A DNA stretch of 64,000 nucleotides from Vicinamibacteria bacterium (GTDB lineage: Bacteria > Acidobacteriota > Vicinamibacteria > Marinacidobacterales > Marinacidobacteraceae): positions 44,449 through 108,448 of the forward strand of contig OY729431.1 of NCBI GenBank assembly GCA_963422395.1, given 5' to 3'. A program made the translations under genes and the position numbers. Numbering within the stretch: the first letter of the stretch is position 1; every line of letters begins with the position of its first letter. Under the pieces are notes generated by a model. That model ran no database searches. It saw only the letters and a program-made list of their open reading frames with translations, and was not told where the DNA came from. Positions 1,484 through 47,260 of this stretch are shown one piece after another.

Positions 1484-1687
1484 CTCCTCATCGAGGATCA
1501 TCGGGACCCGGGGCGTCCCGACACCGCCGGCCTCCCGGCGTTCCGTCATCCGCCTCGGGTTTCGGCGGCGGTCTCGGCGGAGAGGCCGGGCGTTCGGATC
1601 TGCCGGCGAATCCGGGAGGCCGTGCTAGCATCGCTTGCCGCCTTCTGGAAATCGGGTTCCTCTCCACGATCCGCCGAGATTGCGGGG

Positions 1688-2866
1688 ATGCCAGATGACC
1701 GCGATCGCCGAGTGAACCCCGTGCCGAACGTACCTGGAAACTCCGCTCTTCGGCTGCCGAGTCTCTCGATAACCGCGTTCCGCGGCATTCGCGAACTCTC
1801 GATCCCGCGGTTGGGCCGCGTGACCCTGCTCGCCGGACGCAACGGATCCGGCAAGACCAGTGTTCTCGAAGCGGTACGCATCTTTGCCTCTCGCGGCAGC
1901 CACGGGGTATTGAGGGAGATTCTGGACGATCGTGACGAACTGATCGAAGCCGTGGACGAAGACGGCGACCAAATCTCGACGATCGACTGGCCCTCGCTCT
2001 TCCACGGCCGGCAGCTCGCGGACGGAGAGACCATCTCCATCGGGCCCGAAAACGCCAGCGAACAGCTCACCATCCGATACGGACGCCTCTCCGAGGGAGA
2101 GACCGATCGACTGCGGCGGGCAACGCGCCGGTATTCGCTCTCCGAAGTTACCGGGATACTCCGGGTACGGTACGGGGAAATGGAGCGAAAGCTGCCGCTG
2201 TTGCCCGTTCCCCCGTATTTCGACCCGCGTGGGCTGCGCGGATTGCGCGGACTGCGCGGACTACTGATGGACGATGACTCGGATCAGCTCTCGGCGATTC
2301 CGTGCGGTTCTGTCGGTCCGGGTTTGCCCGGCAAGCAGAGCGTTGCCCGAGGCTGGGACGAGATCGCTCTCACGGACGACGAGGCGCGCGCGGTCGAGGC
2401 ACTGAATTCCGTCTCCGTCAGGCCCATCGAACGCGTGACCGTCGTCGGCAGGGAAGGCCGTCGGGGTGCACCCCGCGTGGTCGTCCGACTCAAGGGAGAC
2501 AACCGCCCGGTTCCGCTGAAGAGTCTGGGGGACGGGGTTACCCGAATGCTCGGTGTGGCGCTCGGTCTCGCCAACAGCAGAGGAGGGTTCCTGCTGATCG
2601 ACGAGGCGGAAAACGGTATCCACCACTCCGTCCAGCGCGATTACTGGAAGATGATCATGACGACGGCGCGGGACAACGATGTGCAGGTGATCGCCACCAC
2701 CCACGGCTGGGACTGCGTGGTCGGATTCGCACGCGCCGCGAAAGAGCTGGACGATGTGGAAGGGGCCCTGTTCCGTCTGGAACAGCGCCGCGAAAGGGTC
2801 CGGGCGGTGCGCTACTCGGAAGAAGACCTGGAGACCGCAGCCGACCAGGGTGTCGAGGTCCGATAG
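1688..2866 (+). CDS. AAA15/AAA21-family ABC-type ATPase (OLD/AriA/PtuA/AbiLi-like)
   Basis: An N-terminal LSITAFRGIRELSIP motif is followed by Walker A GRNGSGKT. A signature-like KSLGDGVTRML, Walker B LLIDEAENGIHH and H-loop ATTHG are present. An internal RGLRGLRGL stretch comes from 9-bp tandem repeats. The start is taken at the ATG at 1688; the ORF itself begins at 1622. Confidence 0.7.
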   Translation: MPDDRDRRVNPVPNVPGNSALRLPSLSITAFRGIRELSIPRLGRVTLLAGRNGSGKTSVLEAVRIFASRGSHGVLREILDDRDELIEAVDEDGDQISTIDWPSLFHGRQLADGETISIGPENASEQLTIRYGRLSEGETDRLRRATRRYSLSEVTGILRVRYGEMERKLPLLPVPPYFDPRGLRGLRGLRGLLMDDDSDQLSAIPCGSVGPGLPGKQSVARGWDEIALTDDEARAVEALNSVSVRPIERVTVVGREGRRGAPRVVVRLKGDNRPVPLKSLGDGVTRMLGVALGLANSRGGFLLIDEAENGIHHSVQRDYWKMIMTTARDNDVQVIATTHGWDCVVGFARAAKELDDVEGALFRLEQRRERVRAVRYSEEDLETAADQGVEVR

Positions 2867-2872
2867 TAATTC

Positions 2873-3517
2873 GTGGCCAGACCGGGTTCCGGATGCTCGG
2901 ACTCGATCCTGATCGTCGAGGGACCAGACGACAAGCATGTGATCGGACACACACAGAAAAAATCGATGCTATGCCTCTCGTTCGAGATCGTGGACAAAGG
3001 CGGCGTCGAAGAAGTGTTGAAGTCCGTTACCGCGGAAATCCAGGTTCCCGGGAGGAAAGCGGTCGGATTCGTCGTGGATGCGAATGGTTGCTGGCGTTCG
3101 CAGTGGAAAAGGGTATGCGAACGGCTGGGGCGGGCGGGCATGGAGCCCCCGAAGGATCCCAACGGGGAAGGCACGATCATCGAGGGGCAGCCTCGTGTCG
3201 GAGTCTGGATGATGCCGGACAATCGATCCGCGGGAGAATTGGAAGACTTCGTGCGGCAGATGGTGCCTGCAGCGGATGCCGCATGGCCCCTCGCAAAGGA
3301 ATTCATCAGGAGGATTCCCAGGGAGCATCGCGAATTCACCGAGGGGAAGACTAGAAGGGCAGAGCTCTACGCATGGCTCGCAACGAAGGAAGAACCGAGG
3401 CTTATGGGGTCGGCGATCAGAACCGGTGATCTGAGAACCGATACGGAGCTGTGCCGGAGATTCGCTGGCTGGATCTCGAGACTCTTCGGGACAGGGCTGC
3501 CGGGGATAGCGGGGTGA
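2873..3517 (+). CDS. small TOPRIM-like partner protein of the ATPase (DUF4276/DUF4435/RloB-like, OLD-family nuclease-like)
   Basis: Starts 7 nt after the ATPase stop. The N-terminus ILIVEGPDDKHVIGH resembles the OLD-family TOPRIM 'hhhVEGxxD' motif, and a downstream acidic VGFVVDANG follows. It is 214 aa, the size of a DUF4276-like protein. Confidence 0.6.
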   Translation: MARPGSGCSDSILIVEGPDDKHVIGHTQKKSMLCLSFEIVDKGGVEEVLKSVTAEIQVPGRKAVGFVVDANGCWRSQWKRVCERLGRAGMEPPKDPNGEGTIIEGQPRVGVWMMPDNRSAGELEDFVRQMVPAADAAWPLAKEFIRRIPREHREFTEGKTRRAELYAWLATKEEPRLMGSAIRTGDLRTDTELCRRFAGWISRLFGTGLPGIAG

Positions 3518-4864
3518 GTGAACACTGTGGAAACGAGTGAGGAACGAAGAGACGCCGACCTCGGCAATGTCTTCATCTCCAACTACCCGCCCTACTCGCG
3601 CTGGAATTCGGAGCAGACGGCGGCGCTCCATCGGGTCCTCGCTTCTGGCGGTCCGGGCGCGGATTCGAATACCGGAGAAGCGGCGGCGCTCGGCCTCTAT
3701 CTCCACATTCCGTTCTGCCGGAAGCGTTGCAAGTTCTGCTACTTCCGCGTGTACACCGACAAGAACAGCCGAGAGGTGGGACGGTACCTGGACGGCCTCG
3801 CCCGTGAAGTGGAGCTATACGCCGCGCAGCCGGCGGTTGCGGGAAGACCGCTGCGTTTCGTCTATTTCGGCGGCGGCACTCCCTCGTTCCTCAGCCCGAA
3901 GCAGCTCCGCGGGCTGGTCGCGCGTCTCGAATCCGCGCTGCGTTGGAACCGCGTGGAGGAAGTGGCGTTCGAATGCGAGCCGGGAACGCTTACCGCAGCC
4001 AAAGTCGAAGCGATTCGGAAGATCGGAGTCACTCGGTTGAGCCTCGGCATCGAAAATCTGAACGACGAAATCTTGCGAGAAAACGGCCGCGCCCACACCA
4101 CGCGCGAGATCCGCGCCGTCATGCCCTGGGTCCGGGAAGCGGCATTCCCGCAGGTGAATATGGATCTGATCGCCGGCATGGTGGGCGAGACCTGGCCGCT
4201 CTGGCGGCGCACGGTGCAGGAGACGATCGATCTCGACCCCGACAGCATCACCGTGTATCAGATGGAACTGCCTTTCAACACCGTGTACGCCAGGGATGTC
4301 CTCGACGATGGCCGCGAGGCGCCGGCTTTCGCCGATTGGGAGACGCGGCGCGAATGGCACGCCTACGCTTTCGAGCAATTCGCGGCCGCGGGCTACGAAC
4401 CGTCGAGCGCGTACACGGTGAAGAAACCGGGGCGCGGGATTCGTTTCCTCTACCGCGATGCCTTGTGGCGCGGCACGGACATGCTGGGCTGCGGCGTTTC
4501 CTCGTTCGGTTATCTGCAGGGTGTGCATTACCAAAACAGCGCCTCTTGGGATACCTATCTCGAAGCAGTCGAGCGCAAGAATTTTCCGATCGACCGAGCT
4601 CTCGAGACGACACTCCGGGAACGGCTGATCCGCGAAACGATCCTGCAACTCAAGCTGGGCCGCCTCGATCCCGGATACTTCCGCGAAAAATTCGGCGTCG
4701 AACTGACCGACGAGTTCGCTCCCGCCCTGAGCAAACTGCAGCGCGAGAACATGATGACGCTCGACGGAGATGGCATTCGGCTGACTCCCGAAGGCCTGCT
4801 TCGGGTGGATTCGCTGCTGCCCGAGTTCTACGAGCCGGAGAACCGGAACATCGCGTATGTCTGA
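3518..4864 (+). CDS. radical SAM protein, HemN/HemW family (oxygen-independent coproporphyrinogen-III oxidase-like)
   Basis: Contains the CxxxCxxC radical SAM cluster motif in LYLHIPFCRKRCKFCYF, then GGGTPS. A C-terminal HemN_C-like region is present. The GTG start at 3518 directly abuts the TGA at 3515-3517 of the upstream gene. Confidence 0.7.
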   Translation: MNTVETSEERRDADLGNVFISNYPPYSRWNSEQTAALHRVLASGGPGADSNTGEAAALGLYLHIPFCRKRCKFCYFRVYTDKNSREVGRYLDGLAREVELYAAQPAVAGRPLRFVYFGGGTPSFLSPKQLRGLVARLESALRWNRVEEVAFECEPGTLTAAKVEAIRKIGVTRLSLGIENLNDEILRENGRAHTTREIRAVMPWVREAAFPQVNMDLIAGMVGETWPLWRRTVQETIDLDPDSITVYQMELPFNTVYARDVLDDGREAPAFADWETRREWHAYAFEQFAAAGYEPSSAYTVKKPGRGIRFLYRDALWRGTDMLGCGVSSFGYLQGVHYQNSASWDTYLEAVERKNFPIDRALETTLRERLIRETILQLKLGRLDPGYFREKFGVELTDEFAPALSKLQRENMMTLDGDGIRLTPEGLLRVDSLLPEFYEPENRNIAYV

Positions 4865-4909: not shown

Positions 4910-6166
4910 ATGACTCGGGACGGGATCGATGTAGTCGTCCTGGGCGGAGGGCCGGCTGGTTGCACGACGGCGACCCTGATCGCCCGACAGGGATTTCGAG
5001 TGGCGCTCCTCGAACGGGAGCCGACGCCCGCTTTCAAGGTGGGCGAATCGCTCGTCCCCCATACCTATGGAACCTTCGCCCGGCTCGGCTTGCTCGACGA
5101 GCTGAAGCGAAGTCACTTCCAGCGCAAGCACAGCGTGCAGTTCGTGAATGCCGCCGGCCGCGCGTCGGCGCCTTTCTATTTTTCGGAGACCGACCCCCAC
5201 GAGCGCTCGACGACCTGGCAGGTGCTGCGAAGCGAGTTCGACCAGTTGATGCTCGACAATGCCGCTAGAAGCGGCGTTCAGCTGCGGCAGGGCGTCCAGG
5301 TGCAGGAGATCCTGTTCGAGGGCGAGACCGCCGTTGGCGTCAGAGCACGAGAGCGCGGCGGCCCGGCTGCCGTGGATATCCCCGCCAGAGTGGTGGTGGA
5401 TGCCACCGGGCGGAACGCCCTCCTCGCCAGACAGCTGAACCTGCTGGTCAGAGAACCGAACCTCCGCAAAGTCTCGATCTTCACCCATTTTCGGGGTGCC
5501 CGGCGCGGCGCGGGCATCGACGAAGGCGCCACCCTGATCCTGCACACCCGGAACCGAAAGTCGTGGTTCTGGTTCATCCCGCTGGCAGGAGATCTGGCGA
5601 GCGTCGGCGTGGTCGGTGATCTCGAGGCGCTGCAGAGCCGCGGCGGCGAGAACGGAGCCTCAGCGAGGTTCGACGAGGAGGTTCGCAACTGCCCCGCGCT
5701 CGAAGCCCGGCTGCGGTCGGCCGATCGCGTGCAGCCCGTCCGGGTGGTGCAAGACTTTTCCTACTGCTCCGAGCGCATCTCCGGGAACGGTTGGGTCCTC
5801 GTCGGCGACGCTTTCGCGTTCCTCGACCCCATCTATTCCACCGGCGTGGTGCTGGCTCTCCAATCGGGAGAAATGGCCGCCGACACGATCTGTCGTTGCC
5901 TCGCCGAAAACGATCTTTCGGGCGAGGCTCTCGGACGGTTCGCCGACCGGTTTCTCACCGGAATGCGGAGCTTTCGCAAGCTGGTGTACGCCTTCTACGA
6001 TCCGGATTTCGGATTCTCGGAGTTCCTCCGCGCCCACCCGGAGTGCCGGCGGGGATTGATCGACATCCTCTCGGGCAATGTCTTCGGCTCGGGCGTCGAG
6101 AGCATCTTCGTTCCCATGGAACGGATGTGCGGACTGCCCGGGGATGCGAGCGTCGGAGCGGTCTGA
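4910..6166 (+). CDS. flavin-dependent halogenase (tryptophan-halogenase family FAD monooxygenase)
   Basis: N-terminal dinucleotide-binding motif DVVVLGGGPAGCTTA. The halogenase hallmark WxWxIP is present as KSWFWFIPL. FKVGESLVP and the GDAFAFLDP FAD site are also present. Confidence 0.6.
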   Translation: MTRDGIDVVVLGGGPAGCTTATLIARQGFRVALLEREPTPAFKVGESLVPHTYGTFARLGLLDELKRSHFQRKHSVQFVNAAGRASAPFYFSETDPHERSTTWQVLRSEFDQLMLDNAARSGVQLRQGVQVQEILFEGETAVGVRARERGGPAAVDIPARVVVDATGRNALLARQLNLLVREPNLRKVSIFTHFRGARRGAGIDEGATLILHTRNRKSWFWFIPLAGDLASVGVVGDLEALQSRGGENGASARFDEEVRNCPALEARLRSADRVQPVRVVQDFSYCSERISGNGWVLVGDAFAFLDPIYSTGVVLALQSGEMAADTICRCLAENDLSGEALGRFADRFLTGMRSFRKLVYAFYDPDFGFSEFLRAHPECRRGLIDILSGNVFGSGVESIFVPMERMCGLPGDASVGAV

Positions 6167-6189
6167 GACCCTGCGCCGGTGACGGACGG

Positions 6190-7785
6190 TTGCTCTTCGG
6201 CGAAATCCTGCGGCGGGCCGCAGCGCGCGCGCCGGAGAAAACGGCGATTCTCGCCGGCAGTCGGCGACTTTCCTTCGCTGAGTACGACCGCCTCGCCAAC
6301 CGTTTCGCACACCTGCTGATCGCGGCCGGAATCCGCCCGGGCGACCGAGTCGCCTGCTCGTTGTGGAACAGCCCGGAATACGGCGTGGTCCATTTCGGGA
6401 ACGCGCGGGCGGGCAGCATCCTGGTCCATATCCCGCCGCTCTACGCTCCCCGCGAGATCGCACAGATCGTCTCCCGTACCGAACCGCGCGCCCTGGTGGC
6501 GGACGCCGGCGTTTTGGACCGGGTTGCCCCGGAGACTCTTCGCGCGGTCGGGACGGTGATCGCCGCCGGCGCTTCCGGCTTTGACGGTGCTCTCGGATTC
6601 GACGAAGCGATCGGCGGACAGCCCGAGCACGCTCCGGATCTGGAACTCGACCCCGGCGCTCCCGCCGCCATGACCTTCACCGGCGGTACCACCGGCGAGC
6701 CCAGGGGAGCCGTCGTGAATCACCGGGCGCGTCATGTCTCTGCGGTCACCACTGCGCGGGAACACCGGGTGACGGACCAGGACATCGTCGCCGTGATCAC
6801 CCCGATGTGCCACGCCGTGGGCCTGATGATCTGGCACCAGGCCGCCGTCGTGGCAGGGGCGGCTTCCGTCGTGTTTCGAAAGTGGGATCCGGAAGAGTTT
6901 TTCGCCGAGACCGAACGGCGCCGGATCTCCTCGGCATTTCTGGTGCCGGTCCAGGTGCGCGACCTGTTGCGGGCGCCCGGCTTCGATCGGGACCGGTTGG
7001 CTTCCTTGAAGAACATCGGGGTGGGGGGCGCGCCGACGCCGCCGGGGCTGATCGCCGAGTGGCGGGCCGCCCTTCCCTGCTGCGGGTACACCGACCACTA
7101 CGGTCAATCGGAAACCGGCCCGCTCACCATCCTGAAACCCGAGGAGACGGCGGCGCACTCCGGAACTGTCGGCCGCGCCGCGGCCGGCGTGGAACTCCGG
7201 ATCGTGGACCCCGCCGGCGACCCGGTCGAACCGGAGGCCGTGGGCGAACTCATCGCGCGCGGGCCTTTCCTGATGGACGGCTACTTCGGGGACGAAGCGG
7301 AAACGGCTCGCTATTTCCGGAGCGCCGACGGCTGGGGTTGGACCGGGGACCTCGCCCGTGCCGACGAGCAGGGCTACCTCCGGCTGGTCGGCAGGACTCG
7401 CGACCTCATCATCTCCGGTGGGTGCAACATCTATCCGGGCGAGATCGAAACCGCGCTGCTGAGCCATCCGGGCGTCGAGGACTGCGCCGTTTTCGGAGCA
7501 CCGGACGAACGCTGGGGAGAGGCCCCCGTCGCCTGTGTGGTCCGCTCAGCCGGGGGGCAGGCCGCTGCCGGGGAACTCATCGCTCACTGCACCGATCAGC
7601 GGGCGCGCTACAAGCGCCCGCGGGAAATCGTCTTCGTCGAAGCGATCGCGCGAACCCCGACGGGCAAGGTTCCAAAGCAGCTCCTGCGCAACGCTTACCT
7701 GGCCGGCCGGCTCAGCGAAAAGGCACTCCCACCGCCCGAGACAGGAACTCGACGAACGGCGAGGCCCGGCGCACCAACTCCGTGA
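6190..7785 (+). CDS. AMP-dependent synthetase/ligase (acyl-CoA synthetase, ANL superfamily)
   Basis: Core motifs of the ANL superfamily: MTFTGGTTGEPRGAV, YGQSETGP, GWTGDLA...GYLRLVGRTRDLIISGG and ARTPTGKV. The start is probably the TTG at 6190 (LLFGEILRRAAARAPEKTAIL); there is no in-frame ATG after the upstream stop at 6166. Confidence 0.65.
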   Translation: MLFGEILRRAAARAPEKTAILAGSRRLSFAEYDRLANRFAHLLIAAGIRPGDRVACSLWNSPEYGVVHFGNARAGSILVHIPPLYAPREIAQIVSRTEPRALVADAGVLDRVAPETLRAVGTVIAAGASGFDGALGFDEAIGGQPEHAPDLELDPGAPAAMTFTGGTTGEPRGAVVNHRARHVSAVTTAREHRVTDQDIVAVITPMCHAVGLMIWHQAAVVAGAASVVFRKWDPEEFFAETERRRISSAFLVPVQVRDLLRAPGFDRDRLASLKNIGVGGAPTPPGLIAEWRAALPCCGYTDHYGQSETGPLTILKPEETAAHSGTVGRAAAGVELRIVDPAGDPVEPEAVGELIARGPFLMDGYFGDEAETARYFRSADGWGWTGDLARADEQGYLRLVGRTRDLIISGGCNIYPGEIETALLSHPGVEDCAVFGAPDERWGEAPVACVVRSAGGQAAAGELIAHCTDQRARYKRPREIVFVEAIARTPTGKVPKQLLRNAYLAGRLSEKALPPPETGTRRTARPGAPTP

Positions 7786-8398
7786 AGCGGTCTGGAAAGC
7801 CGGGCCTCACGACCTCGGCTTCCCGAACGCGGGCGACCGCCACGAAGTCCTTGCGCTTCAGATCCTCGACCAGCGGGTGATCGGGATCGAACCCTCGAGG
7901 CGGACGTTTCAGGGAATCGCCTTCGAGTGCGAACGTCTCGTCGAAGGCGGCGGCCGTGGTGATGCCGGTCCAGGCGTCCGGTCGGTCGACGATTTCCCCT
8001 CGAATCTTCGTGAGGGCGGCGCTGTCCGGGCGCCAGATGCCGCAGCCGACGAAGCAGGTCTCCGGCTCGAGGTGGAGATAGAAGCCGGGTGCGTGCGCGT
8101 CCTTCGCCGCCGCATGGCGGAAGTGCGCGCCGATGTTCGTCTTGTAGGGGGTCTTGTCCGGGGAGAACCGAATGTCGCGGTAGATGCGAAAGAGGGAGCC
8201 TCCGTTCGGCCTCGGGTCGGCGACGAAGTGCGGGCTGATCCGGGCGAGAGGCGCCGCGAACTCGCGGATGAATTCGAGCATGGGATCACGGACCACCGCG
8301 CGGTATCGCTCCTTGTTGGCCTCGAACCACGGGCGTTCGTTGTTGTCCTTCAGCTCACGCAGGAAATCGAATAGCGCCGGGGGAACCTTGGGGATCAC
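7712..8398 (-). CDS. DUF2461 / TIGR02453-family protein
   Basis: FDFLRELKDNNERPWFEANKERYRAVVRDPMLEF...YRDIRFSPDKTPYKTNIGAHF is the typical TIGR02453 pattern. The start is taken at the GTG at 8398 (VIPKVPP). The 3' end overlaps the convergent ligase by ~74 nt. Confidence 0.55.
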   Translation of the reverse strand: MIPKVPPALFDFLRELKDNNERPWFEANKERYRAVVRDPMLEFIREFAAPLARISPHFVADPRPNGGSLFRIYRDIRFSPDKTPYKTNIGAHFRHAAAKDAHAPGFYLHLEPETCFVGCGIWRPDSAALTKIRGEIVDRPDAWTGITTAAAFDETFALEGDSLKRPPRGFDPDHPLVEDLKRKDFVAVARVREAEVVRPGFPDRFTELVRRASPFVEFLSRAVGVPFR

Positions 8399-8486: not shown

Positions 8487-9605
8487 ATGCCCGCAGCCGC
8501 GAAACCAGGGGCACTCCCCGAGGTCCGCCGGGACTCGATCCGCCGGGCCGAAGTTCGCGTGCCCACGCCCGACCTCGACGGCGACCTGCGATTCCTGGTG
8601 GACACCCTCGGTTTTCGGCTCGAGCGCATCTGGCCCGCCGACGATCCCGCGTTCTGCTCGCTTACCGGCTACGGGGCGGGAATCCGCTTGGAGCGGAGCA
8701 CCGGCGCCGCGGCGGCGGAAATCACTCTCCATACCGAGGATCCGGCACGGTTCGCCGGCGGCGAGCAGATGCTCGTTACCCCCGGCGGTCTCCGGATCAC
8801 GGTAGCGGCAGCAACCCCGCAGGCCGCTATTCCGGAAACCGTCCACGAACTCGTGGTCCGTCGGCTGGCCGAACAGGAGTCCTGGGGCGTCGGCCGCGCG
8901 GGGATGCGCTACCGGGACCTGATCCCCGGCCGGCTGGGAGGCGCCATCATCGCTTCGCACATCCGGATCGCTGACGAGGGGCCGGTGGACGACCTGGTCC
9001 ACTACCACACGGTCGGCTTCCAGCTCATCTTCTGCCACCGCGGCTGGGTTCGGCTGGTCTACGAGGATCAGGGCCCGCCCTTCGTGCTGGAGGCCGGGGA
9101 CTGCGTGATCCAGCCCCCGGAGATTCGCCACCGGGTGCTCGCCTCCTCCGCCGGGATGGAGGTGATCGAAGTCGGCGTTCCCGCCGAGCACCTCACCACG
9201 ATAGACCACGCCATGGAGTTGCCGACTCCTCATTTCCGCCCCGAGCGCGCGTTCCAGGGCACCAGGTTCCTGCGGCATCGAGAGCGGGGGGCGCGTTGGG
9301 AGCCCTGGCGCATCCCCGGGTTCGAGATGCGCGACACCGGGGTCGCTCGGGCCACACGGGGGATCGCGGGAGTTCAGGTTGCTCGAAGGGTCCCCGGGCG
9401 GGCGGTTCCAGCCAGCAGCCACGATCGGGACATCCTGTTCGGTTTCGTGCGCAGGGGGACGATGTACTTGGAGGCCGAGGACCACCCCCGGCGGACACTC
9501 GCCGCCGGCGACACCTTCGTCCTGCCGCCGCACCTTCCGGTCGCTCTCGGAAGCCCCTCCGACGACCTCGAGATCCTCGAAGTGACGCTGCCGGCCGGCT
9601 GCTAG
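8487..9605 (+). CDS. bicupin (double cupin-fold) protein
   Basis: Two cupin-like segments are present: HYHTVGFQLIFCHRGWVRLVYEDQG and DILFGFVRRGTMYLEAEDH...GDTFVLPPH. The competing minus-strand ORF is low-complexity. Confidence 0.5.
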   Translation: MPAAAKPGALPEVRRDSIRRAEVRVPTPDLDGDLRFLVDTLGFRLERIWPADDPAFCSLTGYGAGIRLERSTGAAAAEITLHTEDPARFAGGEQMLVTPGGLRITVAAATPQAAIPETVHELVVRRLAEQESWGVGRAGMRYRDLIPGRLGGAIIASHIRIADEGPVDDLVHYHTVGFQLIFCHRGWVRLVYEDQGPPFVLEAGDCVIQPPEIRHRVLASSAGMEVIEVGVPAEHLTTIDHAMELPTPHFRPERAFQGTRFLRHRERGARWEPWRIPGFEMRDTGVARATRGIAGVQVARRVPGRAVPASSHDRDILFGFVRRGTMYLEAEDHPRRTLAAGDTFVLPPHLPVALGSPSDDLEILEVTLPAGC

Positions 9606-9771: not shown

Positions 9772-11400
9772 TCACTTCTCCCGGTATCCCGGGCCGCGCA
9801 GCACCCGTCCCGGCAGGGCACCCGTCGGTTCCCCGTCGGCGACGACCGCGATCCCGTTCACGAAGACCCATTCGATGCCTTCCGGGTAGCGTTCCGGCTC
9901 CTCGAAGGTGGCGGCGTCGCGCACCGTAGCCGGATCGAAGAGCACCAGATCGGCGCGCATTCCGGGGCGGAGGAGGCCGCGGTCGGTGAGACCGAGGCGG
10001 TTCGCCGGCGCCGAAGTCATCTTGCGGACCGCTTCTTCGAGGGAAAGAAGCCCTTCCTCGCGCACATAGCGGGCGAACACTCGCGGATGGGTCCCGAAGG
10101 AGCGGGGGTGAGGCTTCCCCATCGGAGTCCGCATCCCCCGAGCGAGGGCGCTGCCGTCCGAACCGATGTGGGTGAAAGGCAGCGAGAGCGCCTGGCGCAG
10201 GTTGGCTTCCGTGTTCCCGAACGAGATCTGGAATCCCTCTCCTTCCTGTTCCACGAGCAGGTCGAGGAGCGCCTCCGCCGGCGACAGTCCCCGCGCCTCG
10301 CCGAGGTCCAGGATCGAGAGGCCGTCGACCTCTTCGCGGAACGAGCTCACGAAAGTCCGCTCCCATCGCGGCCGCTCCCTTTCTCCGGCGCGCAGCTCCG
10401 AAAGCAGCAGCTGCCGCTCGCCGGGGTCGGTGAGCCGACGCAGCATCCGCCCAACGCCGCCCTCCTGGGCCCAGCGAGGGAGCAGAGAGCGCAGGTAGGT
10501 CCATCCGGCGATGTACGGATAGACATTGCCGGTGACATCCACTCCGGAAGCGCGGGCTTCGGCGATCACCGCCGCGTACTCCGCGATCCGCTCCCCCGAA
10601 GTGGAGTTGAGATGATGGATCTCGAGGGCGATTCCCGCCTCGCGGGCGATGCGGATTCCTTCGGACAACCCGGCGAGCCCGCCCCGCAGGTGGCTCACAT
10701 AGAAACCGCCGGAGGACGCCGCGACCCGCGCCAGGCGGATCAGTTCCTCGGTGCTTGCAAAGGCGTTCGGGATGTACGCCATCCCGCTCGAAAGCGCGAA
10801 CGCCCCCTCTTCCATCGCCTGGGACACGAGCGTCTCCATGGCCTGCAGCTCCGCTTCCGACGCGGCGCGCTCTTCGTATCCCATCACCGAGGCGCGCACC
10901 TGACCGGCGCCCACATAGGAGACGACATTGGGACCGACGCCGGCGAACTCGAGCCGATCGAGATAGCCGCCGAGCGTCGTCCAGTCGCGTTCGATCGGAG
11001 GAGCGACCATCATCGGGTCATCCACCGCAAGACCGAGAACCGGCCCGCCCGAGAGGTGCTCGCCGAGCACTTCGGTGGTGACCCCCTGCGCAACCTTGCT
11101 GAGCGCGCGCGGGTCCACGATGAGCCCGTATTCCGAGTGGGCGTGCATGTCGAGGAACCCGGGTGCGGCGACCAGCCCTTCGGCTTCGATCACGCGCAGG
11201 GCTTCCGGTTCCGCAGAGCCGACCTCGACGATGGTGTCTCCGGCGACGACGAGGTTCCCGCGGAACCAGGGACCGCCGGAACCGTCCACGACCCGCGCTC
11301 CCCGGAGGAGCAGGTCGGCAGTGGGCGAATCGCCCGGTGCCGGGCCGCAACCCGCAGCGAGTCCAAAGGCCCAAAGGACGAACGGAAGGGGTCGCGCCAC
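9772..11400 (-). CDS. N-acyl-D-amino-acid deacylase (D-aminoacylase) family amidohydrolase, probable lipoprotein
   Basis: LLLRGARVVDGSGGPWFRGNLVVAGDTIVEVG...FLDMHAHSE is the D-aminoacylase/metal-dependent amidohydrolase pattern. The N-terminus ARPLPFVLWAFGLAAGC has a lipobox. Alternative starts are GTG 11400, or ATG 11445 inside the MITE-A copy. Confidence 0.65.
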   Translation of the reverse strand: MARPLPFVLWAFGLAAGCGPAPGDSPTADLLLRGARVVDGSGGPWFRGNLVVAGDTIVEVGSAEPEALRVIEAEGLVAAPGFLDMHAHSEYGLIVDPRALSKVAQGVTTEVLGEHLSGGPVLGLAVDDPMMVAPPIERDWTTLGGYLDRLEFAGVGPNVVSYVGAGQVRASVMGYEERAASEAELQAMETLVSQAMEEGAFALSSGMAYIPNAFASTEELIRLARVAASSGGFYVSHLRGGLAGLSEGIRIAREAGIALEIHHLNSTSGERIAEYAAVIAEARASGVDVTGNVYPYIAGWTYLRSLLPRWAQEGGVGRMLRRLTDPGERQLLLSELRAGERERPRWERTFVSSFREEVDGLSILDLGEARGLSPAEALLDLLVEQEGEGFQISFGNTEANLRQALSLPFTHIGSDGSALARGMRTPMGKPHPRSFGTHPRVFARYVREEGLLSLEEAVRKMTSAPANRLGLTDRGLLRPGMRADLVLFDPATVRDAATFEEPERYPEGIEWVFVNGIAVVADGEPTGALPGRVLRGPGYREK

Positions 11401-11401
11401 G

Positions 11402-11519
11402 CTAGCAACCTGCGCCGCAGAACGATTCCAGACGCGATCGACCACTATATGTGATGTTCATCGACGAATCGATCTACTACATATAGTGGTCATTCTTTTC
11501 TGCGGCGCAGACTCCTAGA
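11402..11519 (+). mobile_element. MITE-A family element, full palindromic copy (~116 bp) with ~16-bp terminal inverted repeats and flanking TA
   Basis: TA|GCAACCTGCGCCGCAGAACGATTCCAGACGCGATCGACCACTATATGT...ACATATAGTGGTCATTCTTTTCTGCGGCGCAGACTCC|TA. Left and right ends are inverted repeats (GCAACCTGCGCCGCAG / CTGCGGCGCAGACTCC). Spurious ORFs through the copies translate to the recurring peptide CAAERFQTRST. Confidence 0.65.
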
Positions 11520-13938
11520 AGAACCGGAGCGAGTAGCTGATTCGGAACCCCCGGCCCCGCTGGGGAGCGAGATCCTTGATCAGCGAGGTGTGGTGACGGT
11601 AGTCGGTGTCTGTCAGGTTGTACGCCCGGACAGAAATGTTGGAGGTGGTGTGGTCGCTGAGGAAGACATAGGAAGCGGTGAAGTCGAGGACCGCGTACCC
11701 GTCGGTCGCGGTCTCGGTGCGGTACAGCCGATCCATCCGGGCTGCCCACCGCAGGCTGGGCGTCAGCTGGAGTCTGCCGACGGGGACATCGAGCCGCAGT
11801 TGGCCGCCGAGCGGGGGGATGCGCGGCAGGTATTCGTTCGAGGCGGTCAGCTGCGCATCCACGAAGGAAGCATTCGCCACCAGTTCCGCAGCGCCGATGT
11901 CCAGATGCCCTTCCACTTCGAAACCCTGGTACACGGCATCTGCTTGCAAGAATTCGAGGATCGGAAGCCCCCCTAGCTCTTCCCCGGCGGCGGCTCCGAA
12001 GATGAAATCGCCGATGTCGTAGCGAAACACGCTGAGACTACCGCTCGCATTCTCCGAGCCCTGCCGGAGGCTCAGATCGAGACCGAACGAGCGTTCCGTG
12101 CCGAGGTCGGGATTCCCGATCTCGAAGGCCAGGTTCCCGACATGGGGGCCGAAGTTGTAGAGCTCTTCCAGCGAAGGAGTGCGGGTCGAGTAGCTGGCTA
12201 CGGCCACCAGCGCGGACTGGTCGGTGAGAGAGAAACGGGCGCCTCCGCTCACCGAGCTCCCGAGAAAGTTCCGGTCTCTCACCGGCGCCGGCTCTTCGTG
12301 GTGCTCCTCCTCGTGGGGTTCTCCTTCCTCGTGCCCCTCTTCCTCATGCTCCTCTTCCTCATGCTCCTCTTCGTGGTGTTCCCCTTCCTCGGCGTCGTAC
12401 CGGTTTCGCTCGAGCCGGGCTCCCAGCATCCAGCTCAGGCGGTCGCTCATCCGAATTTCGTTGTAGGCGAACGCTGCCATCGAGTTTTGATGGGTCTGGG
12501 GAGCGAGAGCCTCCTCGCCCCTCGATTCGTAATCCCGGAAATGACCCCAGCCGCCTACTCGGCTCTGGACTCGGCCGGCCGACCGTTTCAGCTCCCCCCG
12601 GATCACCAGGGACCGATTGTCGAAGTGCGTCGCGATCTCGTCCGGCCCCCCAGCTGACAGTGTTTCGATTTCGTCCTGGTCGTAGTCGCTGTAGCGAAGG
12701 GTGAATTCGGCCTCCTGGAATACGGAACCCAGCTCCCGGATGCCGAAATCGGTCCGGACCTGCCGCCGCGCCATGGCGACATCCACCAACAGCTCCTCGT
12801 CTTCGTGAGCTTCTTCTTCCTCGTGGCCTTCCTCCTCCTCGTGTCCGTGGGCTCCGTGAAACTGCCCGGCGAACGGCACTCCGTAGCGCGAATCGTCCAA
12901 TTTCGCACTCGCGGCGAACCAACCGCGGTCGAAGGAGAGACCGAAGCCGGCTTCGCCCTGTTCCATCGAAGTCTCCGAGTTCTCCACCACACCGGCCGGG
13001 GATTCGTAGTCGCCGGTTCGATTCGCGTTGCCGCCGCCCCAGGCGAACCAGCCGGCACCGGAAGCCTGGACGCGGGCGCCGCCGCGGAGACCTTCATCGG
13101 CGGTCGAATAGTCGAGGTTCGCATGCCCCCGGAATCCGGCGGGAGGTCCATGGACCAGATGCGAGGCCATCGAGACCACATTCACCGCCCCGCCGATGGC
13201 GTTCGCTCCGTAGAGCAGAGTGGCCGGCCCGCGCACCACCTCGACCCGCTCCGCCTGTAGCGGGTCCAACGGGACGCCGTGGTCCGCAGATTGGCTGCCC
13301 AGGTCTCCCGTCCGCACTCCATCCTCCATCACCAGGACGCGGTCCCCATCGAAACCGCGCACCACCGGGCGGGCCGAACCCGGTCCGAAGCTGCGGACCG
13401 CCAAGCCTGGCGCGCCCTCGAGGAGCTCTGCCACCGTGCGCGCGGATTCGTTCTGCAGATCGAGCCCCTCGAAGGTCTGTACCGAATTGAATGCCTCGAT
13501 CGCGGTTTCGGGCCTGGCGGACGCCGTGACCGTGATGTGCTCGTGCGCCCGCGGCCGGAGTTCCAACAGGATCGGTGCGGGCAACTCGAAGGCGACTTCC
13601 TCGTCCTCGTCCACGACGACGGTTTCCACCGCGCTCAGGAAGCCCTGATCCACATGGAAAGTGAGGGCGCCGCGGTGCTCCACCGCCTCGAAGGAAAACC
13701 GTCCGTGCTCGTCGGTGTGGGTTACCCGGTTGGATTCCAGGAGGACGACTTCGGCGTCATGGGCGGGCTGACCGGTCTCGGCGATGAGCACGGCGCCCGA
13801 GACGGTGGGGTGGGCCCAAGCAGCGGGCGCGAGCCCGAGCCCGAGCCCGAACGACAAAGCGACCCGGGCCGCTGCCCTCGGAAACACCAGGGTCGGGAAA
13901 GAAGAATGGGGAAAACGGAAGGGGAATAGCCGCGGCAT
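11515..13938 (-). CDS. TonB-dependent outer-membrane receptor with N-terminal carboxypeptidase-regulatory-like domain and His/Glu-rich low-complexity inserts
   Basis: Signal peptide, then a plug region (LLEGAPGLAVRSFGPGSARPVVRGFDGDRVLVMEDGVR), a beta-barrel and a C-terminal aromatic YSLRFF. Two inserts, HGHEEEEGHEEEEAHEDEE and EEGEHHEEEHEEEEHEEEGHEEGEPHEEEHHEE, are present. Confidence 0.8.
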   Translation of the reverse strand: MPRLFPFRFPHSSFPTLVFPRAAARVALSFGLGLGLAPAAWAHPTVSGAVLIAETGQPAHDAEVVLLESNRVTHTDEHGRFSFEAVEHRGALTFHVDQGFLSAVETVVVDEDEEVAFELPAPILLELRPRAHEHITVTASARPETAIEAFNSVQTFEGLDLQNESARTVAELLEGAPGLAVRSFGPGSARPVVRGFDGDRVLVMEDGVRTGDLGSQSADHGVPLDPLQAERVEVVRGPATLLYGANAIGGAVNVVSMASHLVHGPPAGFRGHANLDYSTADEGLRGGARVQASGAGWFAWGGGNANRTGDYESPAGVVENSETSMEQGEAGFGLSFDRGWFAASAKLDDSRYGVPFAGQFHGAHGHEEEEGHEEEEAHEDEELLVDVAMARRQVRTDFGIRELGSVFQEAEFTLRYSDYDQDEIETLSAGGPDEIATHFDNRSLVIRGELKRSAGRVQSRVGGWGHFRDYESRGEEALAPQTHQNSMAAFAYNEIRMSDRLSWMLGARLERNRYDAEEGEHHEEEHEEEEHEEEGHEEGEPHEEEHHEEPAPVRDRNFLGSSVSGGARFSLTDQSALVAVASYSTRTPSLEELYNFGPHVGNLAFEIGNPDLGTERSFGLDLSLRQGSENASGSLSVFRYDIGDFIFGAAAGEELGGLPILEFLQADAVYQGFEVEGHLDIGAAELVANASFVDAQLTASNEYLPRIPPLGGQLRLDVPVGRLQLTPSLRWAARMDRLYRTETATDGYAVLDFTASYVFLSDHTTSNISVRAYNLTDTDYRHHTSLIKDLAPQRGRGFRISYSLRFF

Positions 13939-14397: not shown

Positions 14398-14532
14398 GCA
14401 ACCGGGGTTCGCGCGCCCACGGAAGGCTGACCTTCGCGGAAACGGGTGCGGCTCGCCGAAGGCAGCGCCGACTACGATAGCGGCGCCTCGGGCCGGTGGG
14501 GTTCGATCGGAAAAGCGAACAGGAGCAGGCGA

Positions 14533-16776
14533 TTGCGGAGCGGAGTGCCCATCGGAATATCGGTCGTGCTGGCGGCGGTCGGACTGGCAGCGGTCGGACT
14601 GGCAGCGGGCTGGCTGGCGCCGGTGGAATCTGCGCCGGGCGGGCTCGCGCAGCGGCAGTCCCTCGGCCCGCTCGAACCGGTTCCGGCCGAAGGGGCTCCC
14701 GGTCTTTTTCGCCTGGCGATGTACCCCACCCCGGATCTCGCCCCGGCGACAGGAGCGGCCACCCTGCTCTGGGACCCCAGCCCCTTCGGCGTCTCGGTGA
14801 CCCGCGACGGAAACCAGCGCTACCGCATCGCTCTCGACATCACCGGGCTTCCTGAACCGGAGTCGCTCGGCGACTACCGGACTTATGTCGCCTGGGCGAC
14901 CACCCCGGTGTTCCAGCCGACGGTGCGCCTCGGCGAAGTCGGTAACGGATCGTTTCCGAATCTCGGAGTGGTGTCTTTCGACAAGTTCGTCCTCCTGGTG
15001 AGCGCCGAACCCTCCGGTGCGGTGGAAACGCGCACCGGCCGGCTGGTCCTGCGCGGCGCCTCCCCTTCGACCCGCATCCTTCCCGACAACCACCTGATGG
15101 TTCCGGTGAGCGGGAGCGGCGAGGCAGGAGCCGGCTCCGCGGCCCCGGACCACGCGGCGATGAGCCACGGGGCGGGGGAGGACGGGGAAGCCTCCGGGTG
15201 GCCGCATCCGCCGATGCTCGAGGAGACCCCGATGGTCCCCGGGCTCGGCCACCTGCGCCCGGAACCCCTGCCGTTCCTGCCGCGGGCGCCCGCCGACACC
15301 GCACTCCCCGATGCGGAGCCCTCGCAGATCGTCCGTCTGCGCGACGGGCAGACGCTCGATCTGATCGCCGGCCGGGTGAGGCGCCGCATCCACGGTCGAG
15401 ACTATGTGATGTACGGCTTCAACGGCCAGTACCCCGGACCGATGGTGCATGTGGATCGGGACGCCACCCTCTTCGTCGACTTCGAAAATCGGACCTCGTG
15501 GCCGACGGCGATCCACTGGCACGGAGTGCGGCTCGACAACGCCTTCGACGGCGTGCCCCATGTCACCCAGGATCCGGTGCCGCCGGGGGGCCGCTTCCAG
15601 TACCGGATCCACTTCCCGGACGCCGGCCTCTACTGGTATCACCCCCATCACCGCGAGGAGGTCCAGCAGGATCTCGGTCTCTACGGGAACCTGCTGGTCG
15701 AGGCTCCGGCGAACGAGTGGTACGCCCCGGTCCACCGCGAAGAGATCCTGATGCTCGACGATCTCCTGATCGCCGACGATGGCGGCCTTTTCCCCTGGGG
15801 AAGCAGCCGGGCGACCCATGCCCTCATGGGCCGGTTCGGCAACCTGCTGTTGGTCAACGGAGAGCCGGGGTACGAACTGGCTCTCGACCGGGGGGAAGTC
15901 GTGCGCTTCTTCCTCACGAATGTCTCGAACACCCGCACCTTCAACCTGGGGTTCGGAAAACCGGGCACCCACCGGATCAAGGTCGTCGGGTCCGACCTCT
16001 CCAAGTACGAGCGGGAGACCTGGGTGGATTCGGTCACGCTCGCCCCTGCCGAGCGTTACATCGTCGAGGTTCGCTACGAACAGTCCGGGGAGCACGCGCT
16101 GGAAAACCGCGTGCGCCCGCTGGAGCACGCCTTCGGCAGCTACTTCTCGAGGGTGAGCGCGCTGGGGACGGTTCGGGTCGGCGAGCGGGAGGCCGATCCG
16201 GCCGGCGCGCCCGGCTACGACTCACTGCGGGAGAACGCATCGGTGGTGGAGGAAGTGGACCGTTACCGGGCTCGTTTCGACGCGCCCCCGGACCGGGAAC
16301 TCGTTCTCAGCATGGAGGTTTCCGGCCTCGATCCGGCGATCATGCAGCGGATGCGCGCCGACCGGGTGTTCTTTCCCCCGGTGGAGTGGGCGCCGACCAT
16401 GCCCATGATGAATTCGGTCGCAACTCCAGACGAAGTGCGATGGATCGTGCGGGAACCGACGACCGGCCGAGAGAACATGGACATCGCCTGGCGTTTCCGG
16501 GTCGGCGATCTCGTCCACATCCGCATCGCGAACGACGCCGGCGCCCTCCACGCCATGCAGCACCCCTTCCACATCCACGGCCAGCGGTTCCTCGTGGTCC
16601 GCCGCAACGGCGCTCTCGTCGAGAACCAGGTGTTCAAGGACACCGTGCTGATCCCGGCCGGAGAAACCGTGGACATCCTGCTCGAAGTCACGAACCCCGG
16701 CAAGTGGATGGCCCATTGCCATATCGCCGAGCACCTCGAAGCCGGAATGCGCTTCGTCTTCGAAGTCGACCCCTGA
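14533..16776 (+). CDS. multicopper oxidase (laccase/CueO-like, extended form)
   Basis: Copper-site motifs HWHGVRL, WYHPHH and HCHIAEHLEAGM. The N-terminal TM/signal is VPIGISVVLAAVGLAAVGLAAGWLA. The start is a TTG at 14533 preceded by AGGAG at 14521; alternatives are ATG 14446 or GTG 14545. Confidence 0.75.
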   Translation: MRSGVPIGISVVLAAVGLAAVGLAAGWLAPVESAPGGLAQRQSLGPLEPVPAEGAPGLFRLAMYPTPDLAPATGAATLLWDPSPFGVSVTRDGNQRYRIALDITGLPEPESLGDYRTYVAWATTPVFQPTVRLGEVGNGSFPNLGVVSFDKFVLLVSAEPSGAVETRTGRLVLRGASPSTRILPDNHLMVPVSGSGEAGAGSAAPDHAAMSHGAGEDGEASGWPHPPMLEETPMVPGLGHLRPEPLPFLPRAPADTALPDAEPSQIVRLRDGQTLDLIAGRVRRRIHGRDYVMYGFNGQYPGPMVHVDRDATLFVDFENRTSWPTAIHWHGVRLDNAFDGVPHVTQDPVPPGGRFQYRIHFPDAGLYWYHPHHREEVQQDLGLYGNLLVEAPANEWYAPVHREEILMLDDLLIADDGGLFPWGSSRATHALMGRFGNLLLVNGEPGYELALDRGEVVRFFLTNVSNTRTFNLGFGKPGTHRIKVVGSDLSKYERETWVDSVTLAPAERYIVEVRYEQSGEHALENRVRPLEHAFGSYFSRVSALGTVRVGEREADPAGAPGYDSLRENASVVEEVDRYRARFDAPPDRELVLSMEVSGLDPAIMQRMRADRVFFPPVEWAPTMPMMNSVATPDEVRWIVREPTTGRENMDIAWRFRVGDLVHIRIANDAGALHAMQHPFHIHGQRFLVVRRNGALVENQVFKDTVLIPAGETVDILLEVTNPGKWMAHCHIAEHLEAGMRFVFEVDP

Positions 16777-16873
16777 TCCCGACCCGGAGGGGTCCGGCCG
16801 TCCCCGTTCGCTCGTTCGGCGGTTTCGATCGTCGCGCTCGACGGTTCTGCTCTCCCCCGAGGCCCGGAGGCGT

Positions 16874-18251: not shown

Positions 18252-18345
18252 CGAAAACCCCGCGATTCTCGCACGGAAGGCGGTGCGGAATCGAAAAGAC
18301 CCGCTGTTACCATCGCGTTTTTCCGTCTGGCGAGGAATCCCGGAG

Positions 18346-34695: not shown

Positions 34696-35001
34696 TCGGA
34701 CCCCATACCGGCGAACCGCACCAGAAGCCGCCCCTTCCCGGAATCGTCCCCGGGCGGGCGCCCACCAAGCGCCGCAGCAGCGCCCGGCGGGCCCCATAGA
34801 ATCTTCCGAACGATGGGCCTCCGCAGCTGGATTTCGGTTCCTGTTCCGCCGCCGGGGGACACCGAGGGGCCGACAGATGGCCTGACGGGCGGTTGGCCGG
34901 CGCACCGCGACCCCCCGGGAGGCCGGCCCTGGAGGCTCTTCCTGAGCGCCGATGGGCGCGCCGCTGCCGGGAATGTGCCCGCGGCGGTCGCGCCGCCCGC
35001 G

Positions 35002-36198: not shown

Positions 36199-36335
36199 TT
36201 CCCGTTCGACTTCCCTCCGTTCGGCTTCCCTCCCATTTGACTTCCTATCGGCCAGTCCGTATAAGGACGAGCTCCGCTGTCGATGCTCCGACCGGGCACT
36301 CGGCGGCCACTCCCGGAGCCACGGAGATCCTCCCG

Positions 36336-40647: not shown

Positions 40648-40815
40648 TGCGCTTCCCTCGCTGCGGCTGCAGCACCCGAAGACGAAAGGTAGGCGGCTTC
40701 TCCTGAAATGTCGGTCACGGGCCGCTCCAGCGGACCAGTCGGGAATGACACCCTGCCGCGCCGGCTCGATGGATAGCATACGCTCGAAGCGGCCGCCCGC
40801 TCCTCTCCGCGTCCG

Positions 40816-42769: not shown

Positions 42770-42803
42770 CGGGAGAACCTTGCCAGTTTCGATTCGGGGG
42801 AGA

Positions 42804-47255: not shown

Positions 47256-47260
47256 CGGAA

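Follow-up and report, generated by a model that had tools for sequence, protein, structure and literature searches.

A predicted flavin-dependent halogenase in a three-gene operon with a HemN-like radical-SAM enzyme and an acyl-CoA synthetase in a Vicinamibacteria bacterium, and its gene partners across bacterial phyla

Flavin-dependent halogenases (FDHs) are sought as regioselective biocatalysts, and to our knowledge nearly all those characterised so far are from Actinobacteria, Proteobacteria, cyanobacteria and fungi. The 'variant B' enzymes CndH, PltA, Bmp2 and Mpy16 act on a phenol or pyrrole bound to a carrier protein. The nearest known pairing of an FDH with a ligase is that of chloramphenicol biosynthesis, in which the FDH CmlS is encoded beside CmlK, an AMP-ligase/acyl-coenzyme A (CoA) synthetase thought to adenylate the acid that is later halogenated (PMC4249514). 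The nearest cluster logic is that of the chorismate lyase/FDH/cytochrome P450 (P450) clusters (Bmp5/6/7-type, 4-bromophenol), a route to brominated phenols with phenol-coupling P450s (PMC10579414). Bmp5 is a single-component decarboxylating brominase of another FDH type. Ambigol biosynthesis (Ab5/Ab6/Ab10) follows a similar route with chorismate lyase, FDH and P450. The DNA analysed here is a 64,000-nucleotide (nt) stretch from a Vicinamibacteria bacterium (assembly GCA_963422395.1, contig OY729431.1, positions 44,449 to 108,448 of the forward strand; hereafter the window), in which an FDH-family gene at 4910-6166 stands between the genes of a HemN-like radical S-adenosylmethionine (radical-SAM) enzyme and a CoA ligase. 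The halogenase is a member of a known family, and the association of these genes across phyla is uncharacterised.

The genes at 3518-4864, 4910-6166 and 6190-7785 are predicted to form a three-gene operon encoding, in this order, the radical-SAM enzyme, the FDH and an acyl-CoA synthetase. An earlier reading of the DNA from its sequence only (the sequence-only reading) had described an orphan, minimal module of two genes. It missed the radical-SAM gene, which ends 45 nt upstream of the FDH start, co-occurs with the FDH gene across phyla and shows co-varying identity with it. Judged from the gene comparisons given below, the operon is a trimmed, ligase-swapped version of a cross-phylum gene cluster. 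The features of the locus are as follows (aa, amino acids; FAD, flavin adenine dinucleotide).

3518-4864, + strand: HemN-like radical-SAM enzyme of 448 aa, encoded by the first of the three operon genes (Radical_SAM and HemN_C domains)
4910-6166, + strand: FDH-family protein, 418 aa, of the CndH/PltA/FasV structural class (ATG start, profile and structure matches)
4943-4960, + strand: GxGxxG FAD-binding motif, G12-G13-G14-P15-A16-G17 (GGGPAG), read from the sequence
5126-5128, + strand: codon of K73, the predicted catalytic lysine (FQRKHSVQF), by alignment to CndH K76
5564-5581, + strand: WxWxIP motif, W219-F-W221-F-I223-P224 (WFWFIP), read from the sequence
5819-5845, + strand: Fx.Px.Sx.G motif, F304-L-D306-P307-I-Y-S310-T-G312, with Y309 at the PrnA Glu346 column, by alignment
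6190-7785, + strand: ANL-superfamily acyl-CoA synthetase of 531 aa with TTG as start codon, encoded by the third and last operon gene (AMP-binding and AMP-binding_C)
422-1483, + strand: FAA-hydrolase / 2-oxopent-4-enoate hydratase-like protein, a possible upstream operon member (Pfam, NCBIfam)

The gene at 4910-6166 (stop codon at 6164-6166) encodes a protein with every sequence hallmark of FDHs, and halogenating activity is predicted for it. As had been described, it is a 418-aa FAD enzyme with GxGxxG (GGGPAG, residues 12-17) and WFWFIP (residues 219-224). The protein matched Pfam Trp_halogenase (PF04820) with an E-value of 5.7e-27 and 95 bits against a cutoff of 21. Among the NCBIfam models, CmlS was the top one (203 bits), and lower scores were obtained with the monooxygenase QhpG (152), the geranylgeranyl-reductase family (119), LodB (100) and the Ubi hydroxylases (47). 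Against PDB sequences the best match was FasV (8zop; E-value 7e-66, 226 bits), and CndH (7e-60, 206 bits) and PltA (5e-53, 183 bits) also matched with E-values far beyond chance. The top ten matches were all halogenases or the uncharacterised structural-genomics protein 3nix. The matching halogenases, which also include Mpy16, ChlB4, Bmp2, CmlS and RadH, ranged from 130 to 226 bits, and the first clearly different enzyme, digeranylgeranylglycerophospholipid reductase, scored 51 bits. Both comparisons place the protein among the true halogenases rather than among the geranylgeranyl-reductase or UbiH enzymes that the sequence-only reading had named as the other possible home.

The catalytic lysine was located through its equivalents PrnA K79, CndH K76 and RadH K74. 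In the HMMER alignment, K73 (FQRKHSVQF) falls on CndH K76 (FPIKRGGTF), and the same column is Lys in FasV (FQRKYGG) and 3nix (FQQKFGA). The lysine expected of a halogenase is thus present as K73, and the residue first suggested for it, K43 in FKVGES, was the wrong one; K43 falls in the PRxxIGES region, where CndH has Gln and FasV has His. The halogenase Glu, which was also to be looked for, is absent. The column of the PrnA-type Glu (E346) holds Y309 in the window protein, Phe in CndH and Leu in FasV, and since this Glu is missing in CndH and FasV as well, Y309 sets the protein apart from tryptophan (Trp) halogenases only and does not refute a halogenase. Two alignments were used for conservation: A1 with 16 sequences of the family (32-79% identity; the sources include Acidobacteriota, Latescibacterota, Planctomycetota, Verrucomicrobiota, Poribacteria and Streptomyces) and A3 with 40 closer sequences. 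G12, G14, P15, G17, K73, W219, W221, I223, P224, F304, D306, P307, S310 and G312 were invariant in both. GxGxxG, the catalytic Lys, WxWxIP and Fx.Px.Sx.G are listed as FDH features that contribute to halogenase activity, and the Fx.Px.Sx.G site lies between the flavin site and the active site (PMC10377541). Its counterparts are FVDPVFSSG in CndH and FIDPLLSTG in FasV.

The AlphaFold model of the protein (predicted local distance difference test 87.5, predicted template modelling score 0.90) was compared with known structures by Foldseek. The template modelling (TM) scores were 0.89 for PltA, 0.87 for ChlB4, 0.86 for Mpy16, 0.85 for FasV, 0.84 for Bmp2 and 3nix, 0.81-0.83 for RadH, 0.81 for CndH and 0.76 for CmlS. 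The top 20 were halogenases or the uncharacterised 3nix, and the first non-halogenase, a flavin monooxygenase of Bacillus niacini, appeared at rank 24 (TM 0.71). The identity of a Trp halogenase, as the Pfam name has it, was rejected. Such FDHs have the Glu, a large C-terminal lid over the substrate and about 530 aa; the window protein has Y309 at the Glu column and only 418 aa, and Trp halogenases were absent among the 49 PDB sequence matches and the top 50 fold matches.

The same scores bear on another explanation, in which the FDH-like protein would be a flavin monooxygenase without halogenating activity. Within the same operon it would hydroxylate an aryl acid or an aryl-CoA, for example for a catechol-type metal chelator. 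The fold family does have non-halogenating relatives, as seen in the scores of QhpG and LodB, and the FDH clade to which the window protein belongs holds no characterised member. However, K73, WxWxIP and Fx.Px.Sx.G, features of halogenase activity (PMC10377541), are invariant, and halogenases reach 203-226 bits against 152 for QhpG, which is itself under its cutoff of 240. We consider a monooxygenase unlikely.

The variant B enzymes CndH, PltA, Bmp2 and Mpy16 have a common fold with the window FDH (TM 0.81-0.89) at 28-32% identity, and like it they carry Lys at the equivalent position, WxWxIP and Fx.Px.Sx.G and lack the PrnA-type Glu. Bmp2 is similarly short (409 aa). The window FDH sits in a clade separate from these enzymes, and the partners differ: in place of a carrier protein, the window operon and its relatives have a CoA ligase, and the relatives also a thioesterase. 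Neither the operon nor any of the annotated relative loci has a PP-binding gene, so that the carrier association of variant B does not hold here, and PKS and NRPS genes are likewise missing from the operon and the relatives' clusters. FasV (412 aa) was also the best Foldseek match (E-value 1e-39, 33% identity) and clusters with Streptomyces sequences outside the window clade. Its PDB entry, 8zop, names the protein only as 'FasV in complex with FAD'; we take it to be a fasamycin/formicamycin-type halogenase that tailors a type II polyketide, whereas no polyketide genes are present here. The CmlS model has 570 positions, of which the window match ends at 357, so that CmlS has an extra C-terminal part without counterpart in the window protein, and the 203 bits fall far short of 900, the equivalog cutoff. 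Among the cml genes there is an acyl carrier protein (CmlM) and no radical-SAM enzyme; the window operon has the reverse. Likewise, no HemN-like radical-SAM enzyme belongs to the Bmp- and ambigol-type clusters, whereas the window itself is without lyase and P450s; it is the relatives that combine a lyase-like protein, an adenylating enzyme and the FDH.

The product of 3518-4864 carries the Pfam domains Radical_SAM (78 bits) and HemN_C (36 bits), the cluster motif CxxxCxxC at C67/C71/C74 (nt 3716-3739) and GGGTP at residues 118-122. CxxxCxxC, GGGTP and HemN_C are common to the HemN-like class C enzymes (HemN, ChuW/HutW, NocN/NosN and C10P). E. coli HemN carries an extra Cys following the cluster motif, which the window protein (CKFCYF) lacks. 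PDB matches were HemN (1olt, 131 bits) and the methyltransferase NocN (113 bits). In NCBIfam, ChuW/HutW (182 bits), HemN (181), STM4012 (178) and HemW (153) all remained under their cutoffs, and none of the equivalog cutoffs of ChuW (400), HemN (325) and HemW (205) was reached. On these scores the protein is a member of the HemN-like superfamily outside any named subfamily.

The nominal top match of this protein would fit an operon for anaerobic haem or tetrapyrrole breakdown, with a ChuW/HutW-like ring opening and the flavoprotein as reductase or redox partner. ChuW/HutW is also nominally first at the relative locus L013 (188 bits), and TonB receptors occur within the relatives' clusters. The ChuW score is, however, far under the cutoff and equal to those of HemN and STM4012. 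The relatives' receptor scored 234 bits with the TonB-dependent siderophore-receptor model (cutoff 223.5) but 75 bits with the haem-receptor model, which speaks against haem uptake and would rather suit the chelator of the monooxygenase explanation. Haem breakdown would moreover leave the CoA ligase, the thioesterase, the chorismate-lyase-like partners and the invariant halogenase residues unexplained, and we regard it as very improbable.

The sequence-only reading had correctly placed an ANL enzyme next to the FDH, and the gene is complete; the gap is 23 nt (6167-6189), not 24, with the start placed at TTG 6190 by the support of homologues. The open reading frame (ORF) called mechanically, 5791-7785, extends too far upstream of this start. 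The ligase matched AMP-binding (262 bits) and AMP-binding_C (79 bits) in Pfam, and its core motifs could be read: the P-loop TGGTTGEPRG, YGQSE, TGD, GRTRD and the C-terminal lysine of PTGK. The best models were generic or fatty-acid CoA-ligase families (NCBIfam PRK06187, 420 bits against a cutoff of 476), and the nearest structures were malonyl-CoA, feruloyl-CoA, FadD5/13 and 4-coumarate ligases. The 3' end of the gene overlaps a convergent DUF2461 gene, and therefore the transcription unit ends with the ligase. On the upstream side, the protein of 422-1483 scored 29.6 bits with Pfam FAA_hydrolase and 82 bits with the MhpD-like NCBIfam model, and an insertion of about 2 kb now parts its gene from the radical-SAM gene. 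Its place as an obligatory operon member was rejected, as it is missing from one close relative (L056).

For the comparison with relatives, 57 loci (L numbers) were fetched, with the window counted besides, and the window proteins were compared by tBLASTN with 51 FDH-centred loci; L003/L004 and L041/L056 are each one place fetched twice. Relatives of the FDH fall into more than 100 database clusters at no less than 55% identity to the window protein, and the closest named genomes are Vicinamibacteria metagenome-assembled genomes (MAGs) at 70% identity. The radical-SAM gene lies beside the FDH gene in 17 of the 51 loci, which come from Vicinamibacteria, other Acidobacteriota, Bryobacterales, Latescibacterota and Planctomycetales. 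The identities of the two proteins to those of the window co-vary (radical-SAM/FDH 76/79, 74/73, 66/66, 61/59, 55/56, 52/51 and 47/41%), and in the protein database the two families show parallel identity distributions. When all ORFs of the loci were clustered against each other, the radical-SAM gene was the commonest genuine FDH neighbour; next came a PaaK-like ligase, present in 10 loci, then a small protein that fits no known family and a TonB receptor, followed by a 4HBT thioesterase, a transporter of the SSF type and a GT4 glycosyltransferase. Reciprocal look-ups gave the same link: both radical-SAM hits examined (58-59% identity), one belonging to a cluster labelled Poribacteria and the other to a chromosome of 8 Mb, led to an FDH. 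The gene order at both was iron-dependent alcohol dehydrogenase, beta-propeller, radical-SAM, (TonB receptor), PaaK-like ligase and FDH.

Of the 57 fetched loci, 20 have an adenylating enzyme adjoining the FDH, as does the window, and the enzyme takes two non-orthologous forms, PaaK-like (14 loci) and FadD-like (6 loci). The proposal that the FDH and its neighbour activate and halogenate a small acid is strengthened by this recurrence; it needs correction in that the module has three genes. The FadD-like ligase is limited to the Vicinamibacteria-like clade of the window, where it starts 16-26 nt 3' of the FDH, and from its distribution this clade is predicted to have swapped a PaaK-type for a FadD-type ligase. 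The order radical-SAM, FDH and FadD-type ligase is kept in L001, L002, L041/L056 and L057 (FDH identity to the window 79, 73, 70 and 72%, respectively), and the flanking genes differ among L001, L002, L056 and L057. In L001 the stop of the FAA-hydrolase gene overlaps the start of the radical-SAM gene, indicating translational coupling. L002 has an upstream gene of the same position and length with a weak FAA_hydrolase match, and L057 has one at the same position (278 aa, no Pfam match on record, not directly compared). L056, which is without the FAA-hydrolase gene, has a mobile-element-like insertion after the ligase. Two co-directional P450 genes lie between the FAA-hydrolase-position gene and the radical-SAM gene in L002 (1486-6525) and L057 (3704-6519). 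They recall the chorismate lyase/FDH/P450 clusters and, by this analogy, could encode phenol-coupling enzymes as in Bmp- or ambigol-type clusters.

The full set of radical-SAM, FDH and adenylating enzyme was found in Acidobacteriota, Latescibacterota, Poribacteria and one Planctomycetales MAG. The Gemmatimonadota locus is a single cut contig, in which the radical-SAM position is lost at the contig end. In a neighbour-joining tree the partner genes occur on many branches of the FDH clade, which suggests an ancestral association, and FasV, CndH and the Streptomyces sequences fall outside the clade. Conservation across phyla suits physiology better than secondary metabolism, a point in favour of the monooxygenase explanation. 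No description of a HemN-like enzyme paired with an FDH was found in the limited collection of literature searched, and searches for 8ZOP, 3NIX and halogenase with HemN/radical SAM/CoA ligase/chorismate gave no publication on this cluster. A paper on FDH genomics mentions neither these phyla nor these partners (PMC8269204).

A separate sub-clade in Planctomycetota (L009, L020, L021, L023, L026 and L036, including a Kuenenia MAG) has the FDH without radical-SAM or ligase within 8 kb. There, a conserved small gene precedes the FDH, and in L021, the sole member scanned, it encodes a MarR-family regulator.

The conserved arrangement is also the test of whether the adjacency in the window is incidental, with an ordinary fatty-acid CoA ligase and a halogenase that serves an unlinked pathway outside the window, such as tailoring of a polyketide synthase (PKS) or nonribosomal peptide synthetase (NRPS) product. 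Such a view draws on the fatty-acid CoA-ligase families being the best models of the ligase, on the lack of other biosynthetic genes nearby and on the carrier-bound substrates normally used by CndH/PltA-type FDHs (PMC10377541). The absence of PKS/NRPS genes stated earlier is borne out over some 35 kb towards the 3' end, and towards the 5' end only 4.9 kb are visible. Nevertheless, the trio is kept with spacers of 16-26 nt in five related genomes with differing flanks, and a ligase of the other family takes the equivalent place in 14 more distant loci. A chance adjacency is thus quite improbable.

Clues to the substrate came from the relatives' clusters. In the Latescibacterota-type loci L013 and L006, a 203-aa protein encoded between the TonB receptor and the PaaK-like gene matched PF01947, 'chorismate pyruvate-lyase Rv2949c-like' (37 bits, cutoff 22). 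In Bryobacterales and Planctomycetales, the small protein encoded between radical-SAM and FDH was not recognised by Pfam alone, and its profile matched the structure 2nwi (E-value 8e-6), which we take to be of the DUF98 family, the same as the PF01947 protein. Its link to chorismate lyases is made up of this profile match and the Pfam match of the equivalently placed Latescibacterota protein; the two proteins did not cluster together by BLASTP. The chorismate pyruvate-lyase-like small protein and the 4HBT thioesterase were each found in 9 loci, and the PaaK-like ligase scored 233 bits with PaaK and 154 bits with the flexirubin ligase FlxY. By analogy, these partner genes suggest that a hydroxy-aromatic acid, derived from chorismate or imported, is activated with CoA, decorated and released. 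The combination of PaaK-type ligase, chorismate-lyase-like protein and 4HBT thioesterase points to a phenolic acid like 4-hydroxybenzoate, which would be halogenated ortho to the hydroxyl.

The relatives' extended cluster (L013, L003, L008, L054 and L055) repeatedly contains one or two BamB/PQQ_2-type beta-propellers, one of which matched, with 203 bits, the model for the beta-propeller in the adenylating enzyme ACSF4. Also found there are an iron-dependent alcohol dehydrogenase, a GT4 glycosyltransferase, a transporter of the SSF or TRAP kind and, in some cases, an aldehyde dehydrogenase.

What the analysis shows is the identity of the domains, the catalytic residues, the fold, the structure of the operon and the linkage of the genes across phyla. 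The reading that we prefer, at a probability of roughly 0.55, is that the operon activates, halogenates and radically modifies a small acid as a CoA thioester. The ligase would adenylate a small carboxylic acid and then transfer it to CoA, which would take the place of the carrier protein used by CndH, PltA and Bmp2. From reduced flavin, supplied by an unlinked flavin reductase, with O2 and chloride or bromide, the FDH would form hypohalous acid, and K73 would steer this to an electron-rich carbon, either in the acyl-CoA or in the free acid. The radical-SAM enzyme would carry out a radical C-methylation or other radical step on the same scaffold, class C methylation being the leading guess. 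We infer the substrate, the halide, the order of the steps, the radical-SAM chemistry and the product; the halogenated small acid is possibly aromatic, by analogy with the relatives.

Several points weigh against this reading. About two thirds of the FDH-centred loci, mostly from Planctomycetota and Verrucomicrobiota, have no radical-SAM gene within 8 kb. No characterised member stands inside the FDH clade, as the only known halogenases in the tree are the outgroups FasV and CndH, and FDH identities of 55-79% across phyla are unusual for natural-product tailoring enzymes. The role given to the radical-SAM protein is a guess, with near-equal scores for ChuW, HemN, STM4012 and HemW, all under the cutoffs. 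The chorismate-lyase-like, 4HBT and PaaK-like genes were not detectable in the 64-kb window, and since the window ligase is closest to fatty-acid and generic models, an aromatic substrate is an extrapolation from the relatives. No flavin reductase was found among the about 38 window ORFs scanned, about 20 smaller ORFs, mostly at 48-64 kb, lying outside the scan, and no carrier protein was found in the operon or among the window genes scanned.

The spread of the genes also allows a wider view, that of an ancient pathway in Acidobacteriota, Latescibacterota, Gemmatimonadota, Poribacteria and Planctomycetota for a halogenated and radically alkylated hydroxy-aromatic acid with a CoA handle and a physiological role. 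The acid would come from chorismate or be imported, and the product would be a metallophore, a signal or a cofactor precursor that enters through the siderophore-type TonB receptor of the cluster. If true, this halogenation would be conserved metabolism and not strain-specific secondary chemistry. We put this forward as a speculative and rather unlikely extension.

The FDH clade of the window is abundant in poorly studied, mostly uncultured phyla. Since the clade is without carrier protein and tied to a CoA ligase, its enzymes may accept soluble CoA thioesters or free acids, which would be practical for biocatalysis. The pairing with a radical-SAM enzyme suggests that two enzymes decorate the same aromatic scaffold, one halogenating it and the other alkylating it by radical chemistry. 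If the FDH proves to be non-halogenating, it would be a useful counter-example to motif-based annotation of halogenases, and with its three genes the operon is compact enough to be tested directly in a heterologous host.

The insertion upstream of the operon, 1622-3517 on the + strand, is a two-gene pair for a 414-aa AAA_15 ATPase and a 214-aa DUF3226 protein between the FAA-hydrolase and radical-SAM genes. It matches the PADLOC candidate defence system PDC-M38 (PDC-M38A 260 bits, PDC-M38B 111 bits), and since the flanking genes are translationally coupled in L001, it looks like an insertion. Its G+C (GC) content is lower, at 0.63 versus 0.69; that of the window ranges over 0.62-0.73. An imperfect 14-nt direct repeat, GAGTGAACnCnGTG, is present at 1710-1723 and 3516-3529. 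The same slot holds the two P450 genes in L002 and L057, and L001 has AAA_15, DUF4276 and MT-A70 nearby.

On the 3' side, the operon is followed by the DUF2461 gene (- strand, about 7712-8380) and a bicupin gene (8487-9605, + strand). The DUF2461 gene is also found downstream of the operon in L001, L002, L056 and L057 with different inserted genes between, and the bicupin gene in L001, L002 and L057 and not in L041/L056. This synteny probably reflects vertical inheritance only.

The annotated genes further 3' are for hydrolases, a TonB receptor, a multicopper oxidase, nitrogen metabolism and lipids. They include amidohydrolases at 9772-11445 (- strand) and 17950-19800 (+ strand), a TonB-dependent receptor with a CarboxypepD_reg N-terminal domain at 11515-13938 (- strand) and a multicopper oxidase of 776 aa at 14446-16776 (+ strand). 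This receptor is not orthologous to the siderophore-type receptor of the relatives, the tBLASTN match covering 38 aa only. Up to coordinate 42,000 only three ORFs reach 900 aa; those at 21634-24498 and 34893-37856 had no Pfam match, and the third, 15198-18122, which was unscanned, overlaps the called multicopper-oxidase gene.

The only NRPS-like protein and only PP-binding domain of the window belong to a 1723-aa multidomain protein at 42804-47975 (- strand), with a NAD_binding_4 reductase, AMP-binding, PP-binding and Acyltransferase domains. Its gene adjoins those of an NAD-dependent epimerase (41723-42769) and a CDP-alcohol phosphatidyltransferase (39916-41049), and it is therefore assigned to this lipid-type locus (39916-47975, - strand). 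The domain set resembles that of the myxobacterial ElbD-type ether-lipid enzymes, a resemblance of interest for the ether lipids of Acidobacteriota.

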